DNA of 64,000 nt from Eledone cirrhosa (Eukaryota): the NCBI GenBank assembly GCA_964016885.1, contig OZ024742.1, positions 250,852,001 to 250,916,000 of the forward strand, read 5' to 3'. The notes under the pieces are model-generated. The model saw nothing but the letters and a program-made list of their open reading frames with translations, searched no databases and was not told where the DNA came from. The position numbers and the translations under genes are program-made. Positions 2,375 through 55,330 of this stretch are shown here, piece after piece. How positions within the stretch are numbered: position 1 is the first letter of the stretch; every line of letters starts with the position of its first letter.

Positions 2375-3905
2375 CAATGTCAGACTTGAACCCGTCACCA
2401 CAACTAGCAACTAGCATCTCAACACCCATTAATCCACTTTAGCGCAAATAGTGACATCCTCATAGTACCTTTTACCCTGGAGATATCCCCATGTACTTCT
2501 ACTTTTGGTATATTGGCCTTGAATTATTTGGACTACATTGCACTAATATATAATTAATGTAAACTGTAGGCACTGAATTGGTTGTGCTAACATTATCCTG
2601 TGCATGGAGTGCCACCATAGGATAGATAGATGATTAAGTAATTAATTCATTAATAGGGCTATATGTCCTATATGCTGAATACAATGATTTATGTACAGAC
2701 GATATATGAGTTTTGAGTATAGGTGTGGCTTGAGGGCCAGATTAGTGTCTTTGTATGAGAGAATTGACCTCTGGACCACACTGGTAATATTTAACTTTGC
2801 CATGCATTCAGACATACAATGACCTGGAGCTTACCGGGAGTCATATATAGTAATAAGACCCTGCCAGGTTCTGCGGGTGGACTACAATTACAAAGATCAT
2901 TGATTTGGAGGTCTGACTCTTCTTGTAGAATGTTCGGTTGTGGCACTCCATGATAGAAAGTAATCATCCTGATACGAACACCTTTGGTACTTCTTGATAG
3001 ACTACACTGTAATTTATAGATAAGATACTTAAATTTAGAAGTTGTTTATAACCTTATATAATAGGGACTCATCTCAAACACCATTAATGCACTTTAGGAT
3101 AATAAATTTAACTGTGAAAATCAGCCAGTTACCTCCTCTTACGCATTAACTCCCCTTAATCACACACACACTTCCGGAATATAATACAATGTCATCTCTC
3201 ACAACAAAAACAGCCTGATCTATGAATCGAAGTATATCATGGTTCAACGGACACCCAGTGTCGAATCATCATGGATTGTATAATGGACATGTAGTATATA
3301 CATTGCGTTTCCTGGATTGTGTGAGTGGTGGGGGGTGCGAGGACAGTGGTGCTGTTTTGCTTCTCATTTGTTACATTTGTTATATTTTTGGTGTTTCTCT
3401 ACAAACGGGCTTACACGTATATATCGTACAGGTGTGTGTGAAAAATGCTTTAACAATACAGACCCCATGATGCTATTGATTGCCTGCTTTAACTGCTTGT
3501 TTTACATGTATCAATCTGCCGCACTATAATACTGTATAAATAAGACACGCGTGCATGCCACACGTGAGACTGTTTCGTACACTGACTACCCTAAACTTTC
3601 CTCTTGCTTTATCTTCATAAACTGCCAATGTTTTATTTTTATTTTTATTTATTTTAATTTTAATTTTAACTTTAATTTTGTCCTTTAATATGAATGTATG
3701 TAAATTGCCATATTATTATGATGGATGTCAACCCACTGTGGGTCAATATATACATATGTTTTTATATGTCTCTTATGTTGAAAAGGAGGTCAAGTATGTA
3801 AAAATCACTAAATAGTTGCTCCGAAGAATCCAAACCTCGGTTTGGAGGAAACAATTGTAAGCAAATAAATGATTTAAACTGAACTTTGATTCATGTAATT
3901 TCTAT
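1846..3905 (+). mobile_element. 5'-truncated Penelope-like retroelement (Neptune-like): GIY-YIG end of ORF, long 3' region, terminal HHR
   Basis: ORF 1823-2374, then ~1.45 kb non-coding ending in an HHR at 3816; 3535-3905 recurs inverted at 51561-51925. Confidence 0.8.
3816..3864 (+). ncRNA. Minimal type I hammerhead ribozyme with CCGAAGA core (family B)
   Basis: TTGCT-CCGAAGA-ATCCAAACCTCGGTTTGGAG-GAAA-CAATTG-TA-AGCAA; 5-bp stem I, 8-bp stem II, palindromic stem III. Confidence 0.75.
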
Positions 3906-25507: not shown

Positions 25508-28500
25508 TTCGTTTAAAGTCCATTTTCCACGCTACCATGGGTTAGACGGGAGTTGTCCCACTTGCGGCAAGGTTGGTCGGGTGACCGTGTCTCGCTCATA
25601 TAGGACTATCTGGCAGGTTTTCTACGGCTGGATGCCCTTCCTAACACCAACCACATTTACAGTGTGGAACTGGGAACTTTTTACCGTGTTACCTACATGG
25701 CCACATTACAGCGTGGACTGTGTGTTTTTTCTTGTGACACCTTCACGATCTCGATCTCGATCTCATTATCTCATTTATTTGGACTGGATGTTGTGGTACC
25801 AACTTTATAGAGAGAGAGGGTGGTGTTGGTGGGAGTGGGAGGATAGGGTAGAGGTAGTGGATTGGGGTGTATATTTGGTTAAGAGGTGCCTACTGACTGT
25901 AGGTTTCGCTTTGTACATAGGCAAGGCAGGTCTTCTGTATTACTGTGTAGTGCCAAAGATCTTGGTCCAGTGACATTGTCTTAGAGAGGTGCAAGTGTGT
26001 AAGGTCGGAATTTATCAGATCGTCCCAGGTTTTTCTGGGTCTACCTACTCCGTAACTACCATCAATTTTGATTGCCCTGCACTTTTTTATACAGCTGTCG
26101 TCTTTCATGCGCATCACGTGGCCATACCAAAGTAGTCTTCTCTCGAGTAAACAGATCTGATCCCTCTTATTCCTAATTTCTCACTTAGTTCATTTATGCT
26201 TTGCCATTCACGTATATTACTATTACACATCCAACGGAGCATGCATGCTTCGTTCCTTTCCAGTCTACGCAGGTCCTCTGCACATAATGCCCAGGTCTCA
26301 CTGCCATGTAGCATTGCTGTTCATATACAAGCATCATACAATCTGCCTTTCATTTTTAGAGAGAAACCTTTTGTGGCCAATAGTGGTATTAGCTCTCTGA
26401 ACTTTTTCCATCCCGTTCTGACTCTGGCTACTGTACTTTCAGAACACCCTCCACCACTGCTGATTTTGTCACCCAGGTAACGGAAAGTGTCTACTATTTC
26501 TATAGAACCATCTGGGCAATAGAAGGGGCTAGTATCCACCTGAGCATCGGCCACATATAAAGTCTACATTCTTAGATAGTTTACCTGTGATCCCATTACA
26601 TCTTTTATGCACCCATACTTTGCATTTGGGACATAAAATGGAGTTTCTGCCTACTCCTTTCCTACACACTGAGCATGGCCATTTCCCAGATGAGACCAGT
26701 GCCCCATTTTCCTTCCTACAAACTAGAACTTTAGTCTTAGACAGGTTAATTTTAAGGCCTTTTGATTCTAGGCCATGCTTCCATGTTTGGAATTTCTTCT
26801 CTAGTTCAGCCATTGATTCAGCTATGAGTGTTAGATCATCTGCATATAGAAGTTCCCATGGGCAGCCGGTCTTGAACTCCTCCGTTATAGCCTGAAGGGC
26901 AATAATAAATAATAGGGGGCTAAGGACGGAGCCCTGATGAACACCAACTTTTACGTTAAACTCTTCACTATATTCGTTGTTAATTCTAACCTTGCTGACT
27001 GTTTCTTTATACATGGCTTGTATAGCTCTCACAAGCCATTCATCAACACCTAGTTTTCCAAGGGCCCACCAGATAATCGAGTGGGGTACTCTGTTAAAGG
27101 CTTTCTCCAAGTCAACAAAAGCTAAGTATAGGGGTTTACTTTTAGCTAGGTACTTCTCCTGTAGTTGTCGTAGAATGAAAAGAGCGTCTGTTATACTTTT
27201 ACCTGACACAAATCCGAATTGCATTTCAGCTACCTCAATTCGCTCTCTGATTAGTTGCGCTATTACTTTTTCTGTGAGCTTCATGACCTGGTCAATTAAT
27301 TTAATGCCTCTATAGTTTCCCCTATCTAGGGCATCTCCTTTACCCTTGTAGCAGTTAATGATGATGCTGCTGCGCCAGTCCTTCAGAACGACCCCATTCT
27401 GTATGACTTGGTTTACTATCCGGATGACCATAGTGTGTCCCACCGTTCCAGATGCTTTCAGCATTTCAGCAACTATTTCCGAAGACCCAGCCCCCTTGCC
27501 CGTCTTCATGTCTTTGATTGCCTTACTTATTATACTACCTTCAACTTGCACTGATGGTCCCTCTATTGGATCGATGTGAGGGAGACTATCTTTCTCCCAA
27601 TTATTCTCCTCATTTAGTAGCCTTTCGTAGTGACACTTCCAAGCTACCTTCTTATCAGCATCAGTGATGGCAAGTACACCATCATCATTAAGGACACACT
27701 TCTCCCTGACAATATCACGGTTTTCCTTGATACATTGCCTAGCAATCCTGAACACCTCACGTTTTTGGTCCTTGCGTTGTAGAACATGCTTGAACTTTCT
27801 TTCCTCTGCTTCCCTTCTTGCGAAGTACACTTGTCTCCTAGTTTCCCTCCTGGCCACTTGATAGTCTTCTCTACTTCCCCCATCCCGCCATGCTTTCCAA
27901 GCCTGCTTTTTGGCCTTGATTGACCCCTCCACCTTACTGTTCTACTACCAAGTTACTCTCCTCCCGCCTATAGGTCTGCTCCACCACAGGTTTCATCTGT
28001 TGCCTTCAGCAGGTTAGCTTTTAGGAATTCCCACTGTTCCTCTATATTGTACGACTCTAATTGCTCTTCCTTACTATCAAAAGCATCAAGTAATATGCTT
28101 TTAAATTTATTACTGGCTGTGGGGTCCTTTAATTTCCATATATTTCTCCTGAGGATAGTCCTCTTCTGTTGTCGAGTACGTCTCATCCTGACTATGAGGT
28201 CGCTAATTATGAGTCTATGTTGAGAGGTGCATTCTTCATGGGGGAGGGATTTAGTGTTTACAACAGACACTCTGTCACGTCTTCTGGTAAGGATATAATC
28301 TACCTGGCTGGTGTGTTCCCCTGATCTATAGGTGATCAAGTGATCGTCTCATTTTTTTAAGTTAGTGTTACAGATAGTTAGGTTATTTGCGTCACAGAAT
28401 TCCAGGATTCTGGTGCCTTCCTCATTTCTAGTACCAAACCCATAGCTTCCATGGATTCCATCATAGCCATCACAATGTTGTCCAACGTGACCATTTAGGT

Positions 28501-29068: not shown

Positions 29069-31604
29069 TCATCATCATCATCATCAACGTTTAACGTCCG
29101 TGTTCCACGCTTGCATGGGTTTGGACGGGGGTAGTCCCACTTGAGGCAAGAGTGATTGTCTTGCTCGCATAGGACTGTCTGGCAGGTTTTCTACAGTTGG
29201 ATGCCCTTCCTAACACCAACCACATTTACAGTGTGGGTCTGGGAGGTTTTTACCGTGTTGCCTACACGGCCACATTACAGCGTGGACTGTGTGTTTTTTT
29301 GTCGTGACACCTACACGATCTCATTTGTTTCGGCCCGGATGGCGCGGCACCAACATAACTTTACATAGGACGGGGTGGTGTGGATGGGGTGGGGGTGGTG
29401 GTGGTGGGACGGGGTGTATTTTGTTAGAGATGCCTACTGGCAAGGCGGGTCTTCTCTGTTACTGAGTACCGCCAAAGGTCTCGGTCCAGTGACATTGTCT
29501 TGGAGAGGTGTAAGTGTGTGAGGTCGGAGTTTATCAGCTCGTCCCAGGTTTTTCTAGGTCTGCCTATTCCGTGGCTACCGTCTATCTTTATTGCCCTGCA
29601 CTTTGTTATACAGCTATCGACTTTCATGCGCATCACGTGTCCATACCAACGTAGCCTTCTCTCGAGTAAACAACATCTGATCCCTCTTATCTCTAATTTT
29701 TTCCTTAGTTCGTTTATGCTTTGCCGTTCACGTATATTACTGTTACACATCCAGCGGAGCATGCAAGCTTCGTTCCTCTCTAGTCTGCGTATATCCTCTG
29801 CACACAATGCCCAGGTCTCACTGCCATGCAACATTGCTGTTCGTATGCAGGCATCGTACAACCTGCCTTTCATTTTTAGGGAGAACCCTTTAGCAGCTAA
29901 TAGTGGTATAAGCTCTCTGAACTTTTTCCAACCAGTTCTGACTCTAGCTACAGTACTTTCAGAGCACCCTCCCCCACTGCTGATTTTATCGCCCAGGTAA
30001 CGGAAGCTGTCCACTATTTCTATAGAACCCTCTGCGCAATTGAAAGAGCTAGTATTGTGTGGGCACTTGCTGCTACTTATTGCACCAGAACACCGGCCAC
30101 ATGTAAAATCTATGTTCTTAGTTAGCTTACCTGTGATCCCACTACATCTTTTATGCACCCATACTTTGCATTTAGGACACAAAATGGAGTTTCTACCTAC
30201 GCCTTTCCTACACACCGAGCACGACCATTTCCCAGAAGGGACCGCCGCCTTGTTTTCTTTCCTACAAACTAGAACTTTGGTCTTAGCCAGGTTAATTTTA
30301 AGTCCTTTTGACTCTAGGCCGTGCTTCCATGTTTGGAATTTCTTCTCTAGCTCGGCCATTGATTCCGCTATGAGTGTCAGGTCGTCTGCGTATAGGAGTT
30401 CCCATGGGCAGCCTGTCTTGAACTCCTCTGTTATAGCCTGAAGGGCAATAATAAATAGTAGGGGGCTGAGAACAGAGCCCTGATGGACGCCAACTTTTAC
30501 GCTAAACTCTTCACTATATTCGTTGTTAATTCTAACCTTGCTGACTGTTTCTTTATACATGGCTTGTATAGCCCTCACAAGCCATTCGTCAACGCCTAGT
30601 TTTCTAAGAGCCCACCAGATAATGGAGCGGGGGACTCTGTCGAAGGCTTTCTCCAAGTCGACAAAAGCTAAGTAGAGGGGTTTACCTTTAGCTAGGTACT
30701 TCTCCTGTAGTTGTCGTACTATGAAAAGAGCGTCTGTGGTACTTTTGCCTGACACAAACCCGAACTGCATTTCATCTAGGTCAATTCTCTCTCTGATTAG
30801 TTGCGCTATTACTTTTTCTGTGACCTTCATGACCTGGTCGATTAATTTAATGCCTCTATAGTTACTCCTATCTAGGGCGTCTCCTTTACCCTTATAACAG
30901 TTAACGATGATGCTGCTATGCCAGTCCTTCGGAACAGCCCCATTCTGTACGACTTGGTTAACTATGCGGGTGACCATGGTGTGTCCCACCGTGCCAGATG
31001 CCTTCAGCATCTCAGCAACTATTTCCGAAGGCCCAGCCGCCTTACCTGTCTTCATATCCTTGATTGCCTTACTTATTATACTCCCCTCGACTAACACTGC
31101 TGGTCCCTCTATTGGGTCGACATGGGGGAGACTGTCTTTCTCCCATTTATTCTCCTCATTTAGTAGCCTTTCATAGTGACACTTCCAAGCTGCCTTCTTA
31201 TCAGTGTCGGTGATGGCAAGTATGCCATCATCGTTAAGTACACACTTCTCCCCGACAATATCACGGTTTTCCTTGACGCATTGCCTAGCAATCCTGAACA
31301 CCTCACGTTTTTGGTCATCGCGTTGTAGGACATGCTTGAACTTTCTTTCCTCAGCTTCCCTTCTTGCTAAGTACACTTCTCTCCTAGCTTCCCTCCTGGC
31401 CACTTGATAGTCTACTCTACTTCCCCCATCCCGCCATACTTTCCAAGCCTGCTTTTTGGCCTTAATTGACTCCTCCACCTTACTGTTCCACCACCATGTT
31501 ACTCTCCTCCTGCCTACAGGCCTGCTCCAGCCACAGACTTCGTCTGTGGCCAACAGCAGGTTTGCTTTCAGAAATTCCCACTGTCCCTCTATATTGTCCG
31601 ACTC
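29066..31604 (-). mobile_element. Young 5'-truncated RTE-clade LINE flanked by (TA)n on both sides
   Basis: Uninterrupted ORF to the stop at 29424, 3' UTR and (GAT)n tail. Confidence 0.96.
29424..31604 (-). CDS. RTE reverse transcriptase ORF (no EN domain) with PHD-like C4HC3 finger after RT
   Basis: YRGIKL, FVDLEKAFDRV, HQGSVLSP, LYADD, CSVC..CPKC..HKRC..CGRC, FRYLG, LRWYGHVMR, GRPRKTW. Confidence 0.93.
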   Translation of the reverse strand, partial: ESDNIEGQWEFLKANLLLATDEVCGWSRPVGRRRVTWWWNSKVEESIKAKKQAWKVWRDGGSRVDYQVARREARREVYLARREAEERKFKHVLQRDDQKREVFRIARQCVKENRDIVGEKCVLNDDGILAITDTDKKAAWKCHYERLLNEENKWEKDSLPHVDPIEGPAVLVEGSIISKAIKDMKTGKAAGPSEIVAEMLKASGTVGHTMVTRIVNQVVQNGAVPKDWHSSIIVNCYKGKGDALDRSNYRGIKLIDQVMKVTEKVIAQLIRERIDLDEMQFGFVSGKSTTDALFIVRQLQEKYLAKGKPLYLAFVDLEKAFDRVPRSIIWWALRKLGVDEWLVRAIQAMYKETVSKVRINNEYSEEFSVKVGVHQGSVLSPLLFIIALQAITEEFKTGCPWELLYADDLTLIAESMAELEKKFQTWKHGLESKGLKINLAKTKVLVCRKENKAAVPSGKWSCSVCRKGVGRNSILCPKCKVWVHKRCSGITGKLTKNIDFTCGRCSGAISSSKCPHNTSSFNCAEGSIEIVDSFRYLGDKISSGGGCSESTVARVRTGWKKFRELIPLLAAKGFSLKMKGRLYDACIRTAMLHGSETWALCAEDIRRLERNEACMLRWMCNSNIRERQSINELRKKLEIRGIRCCLLERRLRWYGHVMRMKVDSCITKCRAIKIDGSHGIGRPRKTWDELINSDLTHLHLSKTMSLDRDLWRYSVTEKTRLASRHL

Positions 31605-31629
31605 TATATATATATATATATATATATAT

Positions 31630-42283: not shown

Positions 42284-43041
42284 GGCAGTGAGACCTGGGC
42301 ATTGTGTGCAGAGGATATACGCAGACTAGAGAGGAACGAAGCTTGCATGCTCTGCTGGATGTGTAACAGTAATATACGTGAACGGCAAAGCATAAACGAA
42401 CTAAGGAAAAAATTAGAGATAAGAGGGATCAGATGTTGTTTACTCGAGAGAAGGCTACGTTGGTATGGTCACGTGATGCGCATGAAAGTCGATAGCTGTA
42501 TCACAAAGTGCAGGGCAATAAAGATAGACGGTAGTCACGAAATAGGCAGACCTAGAAAAACCTGGGATGAGCTGATAAATTCCGACATCACACACTTACA
42601 CCTCTCCAAGACAATGTCACTGGACCGAGACCTTTGGCGGTACTCAGTAACAGAGAAGACCCGCCTTGCCAGTAGGCATCTCTAACAAAATACACCCCGT
42701 CCCGCCACCACCCCCACCCCATCCACACCACCCCGTTCTATGTAAAGTTATGTTGGTGCCGCGCCATCCAGGCCGAAACAAATGAGATCGTGTAGGTGTC
42801 ACGACAAAAAAAACACACAGTCCACGCTGTAATGTGGCCGTGTAGGCAACACGGTAAAAACCTCCCAGACCCACACTGTAAATGTGGTTGGTGTTAGGAA
42901 GGGCATCCAACTGTAGAAAACCCGCCAGACAGTCCTATGCGAGCAAGACAATCACTCTTGCCTCAAGTGGGACTACCCCCGTCCAAACCCATGCAAGCGT
43001 GGAACACGGACGTTAAACGTTGATGATGATGATGATGATGA
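42284..43041 (+). mobile_element. Young 5'-truncated RTE LINE, nearly identical to 29066-29826
   Basis: ORF 42302-42685 matches the C-terminus of the 739-aa ORF; same 3' UTR and (GAT)n tail. Confidence 0.95.
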
Positions 43042-43496
43042 TAGGCCTGGAAAGGTGTGTTGGTTCTCCGAAACTTAACGTTTTTAATCATTCGGAAGAG
43101 GTCTTCTTTGAATGGTTCAAATGTGTAAATGTTTATGCGTATGATTGTATGTATGAGAGTGTGTACACATGTGTATGTATGTGTGTGTATGCATATGTGT
43201 CTGTGTATATATATCCCTGTATATGTACATATGTATGTTTTGGGGGAAATGTATGTGCTTATATATGTATATACACATGTGTGTGTATGTATGCATATAT
43301 ATATATATATCTATCTATCTATCTAAGGCGGGTAAAATTCCCGAGATCCATGGACGAGTTCTCTCCAGCGGTCTCTGTCCCTCATTATCGCTGCCATATC
43401 CTGCATCTCCAACAGACCAGTGTCTGTCCTTAGGGCATCAACATATGTTAACATTGGTCTTCCTCTTCTAGTGTGTCCATGTAGGGGCTCCCAAAG

Positions 43497-44159
43497 GAGT
43501 TAGAAACTCAAAATAGTCTTTTACAATTAAATAGCTCAAGGAAGGGAATCTTTCCGAGCCGTGTAATACAATTGAATATATATGAGAGGGATAAACACTG
43601 ATACAAGTATACATGTGTTTGAATTGCAAATGACCAAGTTAGCTAGGTTGAAAAAATACTAATTTAAAATAATATGGTTTGCCTGTCTCGATTTAAAGTA
43701 ATAAATCAATAAAAATAACAAGCCTATATTGGGCAACTGCCTTTTGATACCCGGACAGATCTAAATCTGTTTCGCAAAAATTATTAAGTGAAAGCCACCA
43801 TTCCTGTGCTCTTCTGCGGGTACCCAAGAAATTTGTACCTTTAACTTCAAAAGATCTAAGAAGACTGAACTATGTTTTGATATAAAAGCACATGTTGCAG
43901 CACCTAGCGTGTCTCATACTCATGCCGCTAAAAATAGCAGCCGGTTTTATGAGACTAAAGTTAGCTCTACGTATGGAGCCGAGAATATCATAGATTGAGT
44001 TAGAAACTCAAAATAGCCTTTTACAATTAAATAGCTCAAGGAAGGGAATCTTTCCAAGCCGTGTAATACAACTGAATATATGAGAGGGATGAACACCGAT
44101 ACACGTATACATGTGTTCCAATTGCAAATGACCAAGTTAGCTAGGTTGAAAAAATACTA

Positions 44160-44164
<5 letters not shown>
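43497..44164 (-). mobile_element. Non-coding HHR element: 500-bp unit plus ~168-bp terminal redundancy
   Basis: 43497-43666 repeated at 43997-44164; HHR at 43747-43823; related sequence at 57885-58099. Confidence 0.72.
43747..43823 (-). ncRNA. Type I hammerhead ribozyme with CAGAAGA (U4A) core
   Basis: GTACCCG-CAGAAGA-GCA..(30 nt)..TGC-GAAA-CAGAT-TTAG-ATCTG-TC-CGGGTAT: 7-bp stem I, 6-bp stem III, GUC site. Confidence 0.8.
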
Positions 44165-46829: not shown

Positions 46830-47390
46830 CGTTTTTGCTAGCATGGGCTAGACAGGTTGTTCTATTGTAAACAATGTTAGGTCGGGTGACCTTGTCTTGC
46901 TCATATGGGAACTGATTTTGGCTTGATTTCTACAGCTGGGTGCCCTTCCTAACACCATCTCATTTACAATGAGTACTGGGTGCTTTTTTTCCGTGGCACT
47001 TACACAACCACTTTACAGTGTGGGCTGGCTGCTTTTTTGTCATGACACCTCCACGACCACTTTACAGTGGAAGGGGATGAGGGCATATTGTCTATATGCT
47101 TCAGCTTCAGCTTGTTCCCGTGGGAAGTCGGGTCTTTTGTATTACTGAGTGATGTCAGAGGTCATGGTCTTGTGTCATCGCCTTTGAGAGGTGCAATTGG
47201 GCAAGGTCCGCTTTTATCACCTCATGCCAGGTCTTCTTCGGTCTCCCCACTCCATGGCTTCCATCAACTTTTAGTGCTCTGCACCTTTTTATGCAGCTGT
47301 AATCATTTATACACATCACATGTCCATACCAATGCATCCTCCTCTCCTGCACACAGCATTTGATTCCTCTTATGCTCAGTCTCTCTCTCA
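46830..47390 (-). mobile_element. RTE LINE 3' fragment
   Basis: QERRMHWYGHVM..GRPKKTW plus 3' UTR. Confidence 0.88.
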
Positions 47391-49529: not shown

Positions 49530-51037
49530 TCATCATCATCATCATCGCCGTTTTACGTCCGTTCTTCCATGCTAGCATGGGTTAGACGGGTTGTCCTGTT
49601 GTGCGCAGTGTCTTGTCGGCTGACCATGCCTTGCTCATACAGGAACTGATTTGGGCTTGGTTTCTACAGCTGGATGCCCTTCCTAACACCAACCTCATTT
49701 ACAGTGAGTGCTGGGTGCTTTTTTCCGTGGTGCCTACACGTCCACTTTACAGTGTGGGCTGCGTGCTTTTTTGCCGTGGCACCTCCACGACCACTTTTCA
49801 GTGGGAGGGTGTAGGGCATATTGTCTATATGCTTCAGCTTGTACCCATGGGAGGTCGGGTACTCTGTATTACTGCGTGACGCCAGAGGTCACGGTCATGT
49901 GTCATCGCCTTTGAGAGGTGCAACTGGGTAAGGTCGACCCCTATCACCTCATCCCAGGTCTTCTTGGGTCTCCCCACTCCGCGGCTTCCATTGACTTCTA
50001 GTGCTCTGCACCTTTTTATGCAGCTGTCATCCTTCATACGCATCACATGTCCATACCAACGCATCCACCTCTCCTGCACACAGCATTTGATTCCTCTGAT
50101 GCTCAGTCTCTCTCTCAATTCATTTATGCTTTGCCGTTCGCGTATATTACTATTACACATCCATCAGAGCAGGCTTCGTTTCTTTCTAATCTACGTAAGT
50201 CTTCCACCTTCAGCGCCCAGGTCTCACTACCATGTAACATTGCTGTTCGGATACACGCATCATACAGTCTGCCTTTCATTTTGATGGAGAAGCCTTTTGC
50301 AGCTAACAGTGGCAGTAGTTCCCTGAACTTCTTCCATCCCGTTCTTACTCTAGTTATTGTACTTTCTGAACACCCACCTCCGCTGCTAATTCGGTCACCT
50401 AGGTAGCAGAAGCTGTCTACTGTTTCTACAGAGCCCTCCCAGAGATTGGTGGTGCTTGTTTCCTGTAGCTGTTTGCTGCTTGCTGTCCCAGCACAGCTGC
50501 TACATGTGAAGCCTACATTCTTAATTAAACTTCCTGAGATCCCGCTACATCTCTTGTGTACTCATTGTTTGCATTTGGGGCAGAGAATGGAGTTCCTACC
50601 TACACCTTCACTACATACTGAGCAATGCCATTTCCTTGAGGGGATCTGGGTTCTGTTTTCTCGTCTACTTACAAGGGCCTTAGTCTTTGTCATGTTGACT
50701 TTGAGACCCTTTCTTTCTAGTCCCTACTTCCAAGTTTGGAATTTCTTCTCTAGTTCTACCATAGATTCAGCTATAAGTGTGAGGTCATCTGCATACAGGA
50801 GTTCCCAAGGGCATCCCGTCTTAAACTCCTCCGTTATTGCCTGCAGGACTATGATGAACAGGAGAGGGCTCAGAACAGAGCCCTGGTGGACACCAACCTG
50901 TACGCTAAATTCCTCGCTATACTCATTGCTAATCCTAACTTTGCTGACTGCTCCCTTATACATGGCTTGTACAGCTTTCACAAGCCATTCATCTACTCCT
51001 AGTTTTCTAAGAGCCCACCAGATTATAGCACGTGGAA
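49530..51037 (-). mobile_element. 5'-truncated RTE LINE
   Basis: HQGSVLSP, LYADD, C-terminal WYGHVMR/GRPKKTW, 3' UTR, (GAT)n tail. Confidence 0.92.
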
Positions 51038-51064
51038 CTATATATAAGCATGTATGTGTTATAG

Positions 51065-52361: not shown

Positions 52362-53150
52362 TTTTATATATATATATGTATGTATATATGTTTATGTGTG
52401 TATGTATGTATGTGTATGTGTGTATGTATGTATATATCTATATGTACATGTGTGTATGTATGAACGTATGTATGTACATATATATATGTATATGTGTGTG
52501 TGTGTATATATGTATACATATATGTATGTGTGTGTGTGTGTATATAGGTATACATATATGTATGTGTGTGTGTATATGCGTATATATAGGCATGTATGTA
52601 TATGTGTGTGTATATATATGTAGATGTGTATGTATATGTAGGTATGTGTATATATATATGTGTATATAAGTGTGTATATGAATATATATATGTCTGTGTG
52701 TGTGTATATTTGTGTGTGTGTATATATATGTATATTTATGTATATGAATATGTATATGTATGTGTATGTATACGTTGGCACATACATATGCACAGGCCTA
52801 AATCTTAACTATACTTTAATGTTCTCATCATTATTTACTTTTACCATTTTAATAACCTGTCATTTTCGTTTAACAACTTTTATTTATATTATTCTTAAAC
52901 TCCGGAGCTGGAAATCATTCGATTATTCTAACTAGAACATTAGTCTAATGACTGCTTTTATACCATAAATGTATTTTTGACTTTGCAAGAAAATGTTCTC
53001 CTTGCTCCACATAATGACGTAATTATCCTCGCTTTTTTTCCATTCATTGCCAGGGAACATCTTCACGAACCAAAGTAACGTCTTCCTATTTTGCTTTGGT
53101 TGTAACGTTTTTCAAAATATTTACTTCTGTGTCCACTGACTGATTTTTGT

Positions 53151-53203
53151 AAGTTTCAGAAGATCCCGTTAAGGGAGAAAGCAGCGATTCTTTGCTTAAA
53201 CTT
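53151..53203 (+). ncRNA. Type I hammerhead ribozyme with CAGAAGA core (family C)
   Basis: AAGTTT-CAGAAGA-TCCC-GTTAA-GGGA-GAAA-GCA-GCGATTCTT-TGC-TT-AAACTT: all three stems pair, CUU site. Confidence 0.72.
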
Positions 53204-53227
53204 TAATCTGTTCTTATAATAAATATA

Positions 53228-53919: not shown

Positions 53920-55330
53920 AAGTACCTAGTTAAAAGTGAGCCGCTCTACTTGGCATTCGTCGATCTGGAGAAAGCCTTTGACAGAGTTCCCAGTGTTATA
54001 ATCTGGTGGCTTGTGAAAGCTGTACAAGCCATGTATAGAGGAGCAGTCAGCAAAGTTAGGATTAGCAATGAGTACCCAAAGGAACTCCTGTATGTAGATG
54101 ACCATGCACTTATAGCTGAATCTATGGTAGAACTAGAGAAGAAATTCCAAACATGGAAGCAGGGACTAGAAAGGGTCTCAAAGTCAACATGACAAAGACT
54201 AAGGTCCTTGTAAGTAGACGAGAAAACAGAACCCAGATCCCCACAGGGAAATGGCCTTGCTCAGTATGAAGTGAAGGTGTAGGTAGGAACTCCTACAAAC
54301 AATGGGTATACAAGAGATGTGGGATCTCAGGAAGCTTAACTAAGAATGTAGGCTTCACATGTAGCAGCTGCGCTGGGACAGCAAGAAGCAAACAGCCACA
54401 GGAAACAAGCACCACCAAACTCTGGGAGGGCTCTGTAGAAACAGTAGACAACTTCTGCTATCTAGGTGACCGAATCAGCAGCGGAGGTGGGCATTCAGAA
54501 AGTACAATTACTAGTGTAAGAATGGAAAGGAAGAAGTTCAGGGAGCTACTGCCACTGCTAGCTGCAAAAGGCTTTTCCCTCAAAATGAAAGGCAGACTGT
54601 ATGATGCGTGTATACGAACAGCAATGTAACATGGTAGTGAGACCTGGTCACTGTCTGTAGAAGACTTACGTAGATTAGAAAGAAACGAAGCCTGCATGCT
54701 CCGATGGATGTGTAATAGTAATATACGCGAATGGTAAAGCATAAACGAATTGAGAGAGGAATCAAATGCTGTGTGCAGGAGAGGCGGTTGCATTGGTATG
54801 GATATGTGATGCGTATGAAGGATGACAGCTGCATAAAAAGGTGCAGAACACTAGAAGTTGATGGAAGCCGCGGAGTGGGGAGACCCAAGAAAACCTGGGA
54901 TGAGGTGATAAAAGCCAACCATACTCAATTGGACCTCTCAATGGCGATGACACATGACCATGACCTCTGGCGTCACGCAGTAATATAGAAGACCCAACCA
55001 CCCACGGGTACAAGCTGAAGCTGAAGCATATGGACAATATGCCCCCACACTCTCCCACAGCAAAGTGGTCGTGGAGGTGCCACGGCAAAAAACCACCTAG
55101 CCCACACTGTAAAGTGGACGTGTAGACGCCACGGAAAAAAAGCACCCAGCACTCACTGTAAATGAAGTTGGTATTAGAAAGGGCATCCAGCTGTAGAAAC
55201 CAAGCCCAAATCAGTTCCTGTATGAGCAAGGCATGGTCAGCCGACCAGACACTGCCCACAACAGGACAACCCGTCTAACCCATGCTAGCATGGAAGAACG
55301 GACGTAAAACGGTGATGATGACGATGATGA
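53920..55330 (+). mobile_element. 5'-truncated, internally deleted RTE LINE between (TA)n tracts
   Basis: AFVDLEKAFDRVP, C-terminal motifs, 3' UTR, (GAT)n; same subfamily as 49530-51037. Confidence 0.92.

Follow-up and report, generated by a model that had tools for sequence, protein, structure and literature searches.

Type I hammerhead ribozymes in retrozyme and Penelope-like repeats are already in print, as are pseudoknotted hammerheads and natural cores with U4C, A6C or a U3-A8 pair. The closest described systems are the non-LTR retrozymes (PMC7229834; bioRxiv 10.64898/2026.07.22.740005), which, in the parts of these reports drawn on here, resemble our repeat in that each unit is non-coding and AT-rich and contains one type I hammerhead, and in occurring as monomers and dimers. 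The two-hammerhead tandem is given as the defining arrangement of the active non-LTR retrozyme (bioRxiv 10.64898/2026.07.22.740005), and the metazoan members have been proposed to be derived from, and moved by, Penelope-like elements (PMC7229834). Our unit is larger (about 500 nt versus about 300 nt), and it is unlike these retrozymes, as far as the same parts describe them, in its adenine at core position 4 (A4), in a stem III long enough for activity as a monomer, in a helix joining the 5′ flank to loop II and in being documented here from DNA evidence. The hammerheads of Penelope-like elements, in the sections of the survey PMC4209133 considered, are likewise of type I, belong to highly variable families within a genome, show U3-A8 covariation and occur as dispersed truncated copies and inverted pairs; those sections mention no variant at position 4. 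They are of a minimal dimer type, whereas stem III measures 5-13 bp here, and, unlike a Penelope-like element, the focal unit has no ORF linked to it. Natural U4C, A6C, U3-A8 and U10.1-U11.1 variants, together with stem I-II pseudoknots that rescue weak cores, are described in PMC3088659, and all four of these core variants also occur among the repeat families treated here; U4A is not named in the text or the 11 text supplements of that article. Within a limited literature search, which returned no report of a natural U4A, what appears to be new is a natural U4A hammerhead core as a clade trait.

The window, i.e., the whole 64,000-nt stretch of Eledone cirrhosa DNA that was analysed, belongs to a 3.0 Gb genome rich in AT microsatellites. 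Sequence reading and a descriptor scan place a type I hammerhead on its minus strand at 43746..43824, and pair counts on 30 copies of the clade carrying A4 (the A4 clade) agree with this three-way junction. Stem I has 8 bp (43824-43817 with 43753-43746); the first-pass annotation had recognized the stem and counted 7 bp. Stem II has 3 bp (43809-43807 with 43776-43774), opens with G10.1-C11.1 and carries a 30-nt loop II, while stem III, within the same interval, has 6 bp and a 4-nt loop. The G12-A13-A14-A15.1 box (GAAA), found by sequence and descriptor scan, lies at 43770..43773 (G12-A14 at 43773-43771) and is invariant in both of our alignments, its presence having been a criterion for row selection; the GUC triplet lies at 43753..43756, with C17 at 43754 and a cut predicted at 43754/43753 by hammerhead numbering. 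The G10.1-C11.1-closed stem II, the 6-bp stem III with its tetraloop and the GUC site proposed earlier are thus all present, on the minus strand. The core box C3-A9 occupies 43816-43810; the copy has C3, G5, A6, G8, A9, G12, A13, A14, A15.1-U16.1 and H17, and the canonical U4 of the CUGA turn is absent, replaced by A4 at 43815, as had been claimed and as sequence, scan and family census agree. Since bases other than U are known at position 4 of natural hammerheads (U4C, PMC3088659), A4 makes the motif a variant and does not remove it from the class. The limits of 43747..43823 first given to the feature omitted the conserved helix between its 5′ flank and loop II.

The descriptor scan left position 4 free and, at a loose cut-off, gave 3 matches in the window versus 5 in the 30 shuffled windows used as controls; at the stem lengths of the focal motif, there were 0 matches in those 30 shuffled windows. 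A search of the whole window against Rfam at E<=1 gave no hammerhead, and the focal motif was unmatched at E<=10, but so was a U4 relative at the same threshold; position 4 is, thus, not the sole reason for the motif being missed, and the Rfam test, blind to both motifs, is non-discriminating here. The prediction that CUGANGA searches would overlook such motifs is correct for literal descriptors; in the case of Rfam, position 4 alone does not account for it.

The window copy had also been described as well folded, which the calculations do not support: on the minus strand, its fold has a z-score of -1.17, and stem II is predicted with a probability of 0.05, since the loop II linker captures the core box, a mispairing made possible by a private change in this copy. 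It is a diverged insertion with a single hammerhead, predicted to misfold, and probably a decaying passenger. Treated as a circle, one period (43497-43996) folds at -119 kcal/mol versus -98 +/- 7 kcal/mol for shuffles (z -3.1), and its minimum-energy circular fold is without the hammerhead.

The substitution at position 4 is a property of the family. An exact pattern census returned 57 copies with A and 0 with another base, and with a degenerate pattern A stood in 397 of 416 matches, U in 18 and G in 1, so that the genome-wide family state is A4 and a U4 consensus, from which the window copy would have departed on its own, is excluded. A looser superfamily pattern, with 1,428 matches versus 0 in the reversed control, revealed sister clades with U4. 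With the core box left free, the first 100 of 611 copies, read by eye, had A in 91, C in 7 and U in 2 at position 4; changes at position 6 were to C (4) and G (1), those at position 7 to U (18) and G (1), and positions 3, 5, 8 and 9 showed scattered changes (5, 1, 2 and 1, respectively). Among these 100 copies, the shared core variants fall at positions 4, 7 and 6. The earlier view that A4 is not private decay holds, since A4 is the family state and recurs in an unrelated family; the idea that it characterizes the whole lineage does not, as sister clades, other families of the window and the motifs of Penelope-like elements themselves keep U4. A further lineage of the superfamily, at L250:3081-3413, has a CUGAGGA core and a G-C closed stem II of another sequence; it is missed by the census patterns, and the superfamily is larger than counted.

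We placed the core variants on a tree of 16 rows (13 subfamily consensuses and 3 deep copies) from which the core columns were removed, a per-copy FastTree being distorted by truncated copies; four single deep copies with much non-element sequence in their flank were left out. On this consensus tree, A4 runs through S5, S1, S3 and S4, with U4 copies remaining within some clusters (6 in S5, 2 in S1b, 3 in S3b); S2 is U4 and may be ancestral or a reversion (support 44/30), and S4dup includes a C4 lineage. Subfamily S6 nests inside the A4 span, beside S4dup, on a long branch (0.31, support 82/97). It has U4 together with U3-A8 in 32/32 copies of a cluster defined with these two bases, and in 31/31 when copies are anchored by the flank and the core is left free. 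The AU test rejects a grouping of S6 with the U4 outgroups (p=0.009) and a single clade uniting all U4 rows (p=5e-6), and S6 and S4dup share a duplicated stem III module that was excluded from the tree; whichever way the tree is rooted, it follows from these rejections and this shared duplication that A4 ancestors gave rise to one or more U4 lineages. S6 may, of course, have regained activity after reverting to U4, so its descent is no proof that A4 was active. The S6 loci (L253-L282) have a period of ~550 nt, their copies are 92-97% alike, and dimers and inverted pairs are many. Another subfamily (L183, L184, L185) combines A4 with A6C in 5/5 copies and includes two tandem dimers. The least diverged copies seen include A4 subfamilies (tips of 0-0.02 in the per-copy tree), which indicates that the A4 variant kept amplifying.

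The focal motif is carried by an insertion on the minus strand, at 43497..44164, composed of 1.34 units of a ~500-nt non-coding repeat with one hammerhead; its two ends share a 168-nt direct repeat, 94% alike. Its 3′ end is adjoined by an unrelated neighbour of very high copy number (43320..43496, minus strand), made up of a short reading frame and a GATA-type tail after it, which we take to resemble the 3′ end of an RTE LINE. Relatives of the insertion span from less than 1 to about 2 units; most copies have 1-1.7 units and one hammerhead, and no long arrays of the ~500-nt unit were seen among the copies examined. Two fixed AT-rich points account for their 3′ ends, most of which lead into (TA)n, and the copies are often 5′-truncated or carry inverted 5′ pieces. 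Such insertion features, (TA)n targets and 5′ inversions, are described for Penelope-like elements in the part of PMC8557442 used here. The repeat, thus, has the partial tandems, the 5′ truncation with inversion and the (TA)n targets of a Penelope-like derivative, as well as the non-coding unit with one type I hammerhead of a non-LTR retrozyme. Two hammerheads ~470-560 nt apart occur in 15 fetched superfamily loci, 9/15 of which have A4 in at least one unit; tandem A4 dimers ~500 nt apart do exist, and the window copy, with one motif, has no tandem pair.

No Penelope-like protein match was found within the ~500-nt unit. Among the 10,596 GIY-YIG candidates in the genome, 50 loci were examined, and 0/50 hold the unit as their own terminal repeat; mobilisation by Penelope-like elements is, thus, deduced from the architecture, which makes it likely that the repeat was spread by Penelope-like enzymes. 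Superfamily units lie directly next to the 3′ (TA)n of one Penelope-like family at 4/16 loci (L205, L223, L230 and L250) versus 1/34 others, with a Fisher p=0.03 that belongs to a pattern noticed post hoc; over 30 further S6 loci, that family adjoined the unit only at the query locus, so that a common target preference explains the adjacency equally well. The 3′ end of this Penelope-like family has a degenerate hammerhead-like motif, also with U3-A8. Between the upstream and downstream repeats of one insertion, we found 0 fixed differences over 11 loci, and private variants were common to both in 4; this identity fits a circle and a homogeneous tandem alike and, thus, does not separate them.

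The 5′ flank of the hammerhead deserves separate treatment. About 23 nt immediately 5′ of stem I pair with loop II over 15-22 bp in 20/20 groups, with duplex energies of -12 to -25 kcal/mol versus -5 to -9 kcal/mol for shuffles of these groups. In the window copy, the flank strand lies at 43825..43847 on the minus strand (proximal arm 43830-43825, distal arm 43847-43839; placed by duplex and compensatory pairs), and the complementary strand of loop II lies at 43786..43806, also on the minus strand (segments 43806-43801 and 43794-43786). Across 18 U4 copies, 4/17 pairs changed on both sides and 90% of cells are paired, and across 30 A4-clade copies one pair runs C-G, U-G, U-A, these counts being of sequences and not of evolutionary events. 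The cognate duplex ranked first in just 8/20 rows (mean of -18.6 versus -13.5 kcal/mol for non-cognate duplexes); given this weak ranking, the case for covariation rests on the pair counts in the A4-clade and U4 copies. We regard the helix as a probable pseudoknot or switch helix. The stem I-II pseudoknots reported to accelerate hammerheads measure 4-6 bp in the examples we drew from PMC3088659, compared with 15-22 bp here. In nested folding, the flank helix competes with stem I and can displace it, and the linker left beside the full helix, of 4-12 nt, would hardly span that helix; the helix may, thus, be inhibitory rather than activating. Possibly, the proximal arm provides the activating contact, and formation of the full helix switches the ribozyme off.

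The unrelated family that also carries A4, family C, is represented in the window by three cores (51412+, 53157+ and 57155-), all of them A4; the second belongs to a hammerhead-like motif at 53144..53211 on the plus strand, with a U.U mismatch at 10.1/11.1 and a CUU site. The layout of the family comprises a two-part stem I, U2.1 and U10.1, and the focal superfamily profile does not match it (score -5.9), which confirms that the two are unrelated. Genome-wide, 21,403 pattern matches were obtained, and A4 was present in 100/100 of those listed. In fetched loci, 46/48 copies are A4, and both U4 copies lie at inversion junctions; the common box is present in 45 of the 48 copies, and these 45 keep all other core bases. 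It had been stated that all copies share the substitution, which applies to the three window copies and to the listed matches. Family C being unrelated in sequence and yet A4, the substitution probably arose at least two times. At the Penelope-like loci L236, L237 and L240, a minimal U4 hammerhead with U.U at 10.1/11.1 and a CUU site lies 3′ of the ORF; it shares the layout of family C and is a candidate relative of that family's driver.

Other hammerhead-like families occur in the window, at a density of ~15-20 motifs per 64 kb. A third family has C4 (CCGAAGA; core starts at 3821+, 52030+ and 51645-), a long stem II and a palindromic stem III, with stem I intact only in the 3821 copy. At least four further families, mostly of the minimal type, have U4 (1156+, 1004-, 14487+, 36135+, 41180-, 46375-, 46597+, 872-, 41954- and 10933+). 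The window also includes long interspersed repeats with reverse-transcriptase-like frames (25510-28059 and 29088-31606) and fragments of them (42284-43020, 46836-47390, 49548-51039 and 53920-55312), several copies having 65-97% identity.

Constraint while A4 was in place was measured on nine A4-clade consensuses, which differ outside the motif by 0.315 changes per column (84 in 267). Stems I-III show six changes, 6/6 of which keep pairing; pair-breaking changes are 0 versus ~7.5 expected at the outside-motif rate (rough Poisson P=5e-4), two apparent changes due to the alignment of a duplicated second module having been set aside. Compensatory changes turn C-G into U-A in stem I and G-C into A-U in stem III, and double changes are also found in the flank helix; in the 30 A4-clade copies, 95% of the cells of the three-way junction are paired versus 24-48% in slid controls. 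As the stem changes all keep pairing, we conclude that the fold was under selection. The ten strict core sites show 1 change (A6C) versus 3.1 expected, and, with the core tested by itself, conservation in this clade falls short of significance (P=0.18). Selection on the chemistry as such is suggested by two features of the sequences, the U3-A8 swap and the decay of redundant GAAA and GUC: the duplicated stem III module retains its first GAAA and its last GUC, and the redundant copies drift.

Judging from these sequence patterns, we consider it fairly probable that A4 units cut at GUC, at a slower rate, with help from the flank contact and possibly from a protein, and that Penelope-like enzymes copy the uncut or re-ligated RNA. 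Cleavage at GUC would turn transcripts of tandem copies into unit-length RNAs that are re-ligated, or the transcripts would stay uncut; on a (TA)n target, a Penelope-like reverse transcriptase/endonuclease would then prime at AT-rich internal sites, and copying through the junction would yield insertions of 1-2 units, 5′-truncated or inverted. Position 4 would be the most tolerant of the conserved core bases, and the flank:loop II helix, as a stem I-II tertiary contact, would prop the weak 3-bp stem II and offset the A4 penalty. In the published material consulted, U4C is said to retain enough activity in vivo (PMC3088659), and U4 is not among the inactivating changes in 50 phage plaques (PMC4075628). 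A broader claim, which we put forward tentatively and lean slightly against, is that position 4 is tunable, an active U4 passing to A4, to C4 and back (with U3-A8) under the protection of the long pseudoknot, and A4 arising independently in a family of >21,000 copies.

It seems to us somewhat unlikely that A4 instead inactivates the ribozyme, or nearly so, the repeat spreading via uncut tandems and its helices being kept for some other use, for example recognition by a Penelope-like protein or RNA stability. The DNA gives this alternative some ground: 5′ ends do not accumulate at the cut site, as they would if cleavage left a footprint, in 30 loci picked by their downstream part, insertions read through the site (26/31 focal copies), and in family C just ~4/43 copies have an end 6 nt or less from it, an indel artefact accounting for one of these. 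The non-significant core-only test also speaks for it, as does the fixation, on top of A4 and in an amplifying subfamily, of A6C, which is reported as low-activity in the portion of PMC3088659 used. From the literature, again as partly consulted, one may add that hammerhead mutants of a Penelope-like element insert normally in vitro, cleavage being dispensable there (PMC11167929), that Penelope-like clades without hammerhead thrive (PMC8557442) and that, when a type III hammerhead was scanned by mutation, all single and double mutants of the CUGA turn had low activity, except for the C3-G8 swap (PMC9901934). An inactive ribozyme fits poorly, on the other hand, with G5, G8, A9, GAAA and GUC being unchanged in 9/9 A4-clade consensuses (an apparent change at A13 belongs to the duplicated second module), with a descendant that swapped U3-A8, a pair important in the active fold, and with the retention of the other core bases in family C.

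Compatible with slow cutting, and in our opinion rather unlikely as the origin of the substitution, is an adaptive role of A4 as a remedy for misfolding: once the first pair of stem I became G-C, a G2.1-C3-U4/A9-G10.1-C10.2 hairpin would hide the core, and A4, C4 or U3 would avoid it. With U4 put in place in silico, position 4 does become paired more often, at 0.7-0.97 in most A4 subfamilies, and the natural hairpin probability is 0.19 for G2.1/A4 (n=74) versus 0.88 for G2.1/U4 (n=2); A2.1 is present in 13/18 U4 copies of the clade versus 3 of the first 100 A4 copies, and S6 has U4 only together with U3. However, G2.1 and A4 became linked in one evolutionary event, G2.1 occurs together with U4 in a U4 sister sub-lineage at a hairpin probability of 0.95 (n=3), family C, with its U2.1 and U10.1, is left unexplained, and the folding model ignores tertiary contacts. 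Finally, that A4 is a private mutation of a decayed copy, as the private changes and the weak predicted fold of the window copy might suggest, or that the fold is a chance match, is hardly credible in view of the 397/416 family matches with A4 for the former and, for the latter, of the 0/30 shuffles of equal quality and the covarying stems.

Should A4 cores cleave, genome searches rely on too narrow a hammerhead consensus and overlook very abundant families; if position 4 is indeed tunable, large numbers of active animal hammerheads would escape CUGANGA descriptors, and the long helix might serve as a folding switch that times the cutting of units. The superfamily offers, in any case, a natural series of cores (U4, A4, C4, A4+C6 and U3-U4-A8) placed on a tree, in which the tertiary buffering of core changes can be followed. 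If A4 cores do not cleave, this series shows that repeats of the retrozyme type can go on spreading with a crippled ribozyme, which bears on the role of the hammerhead in Penelope-like elements.
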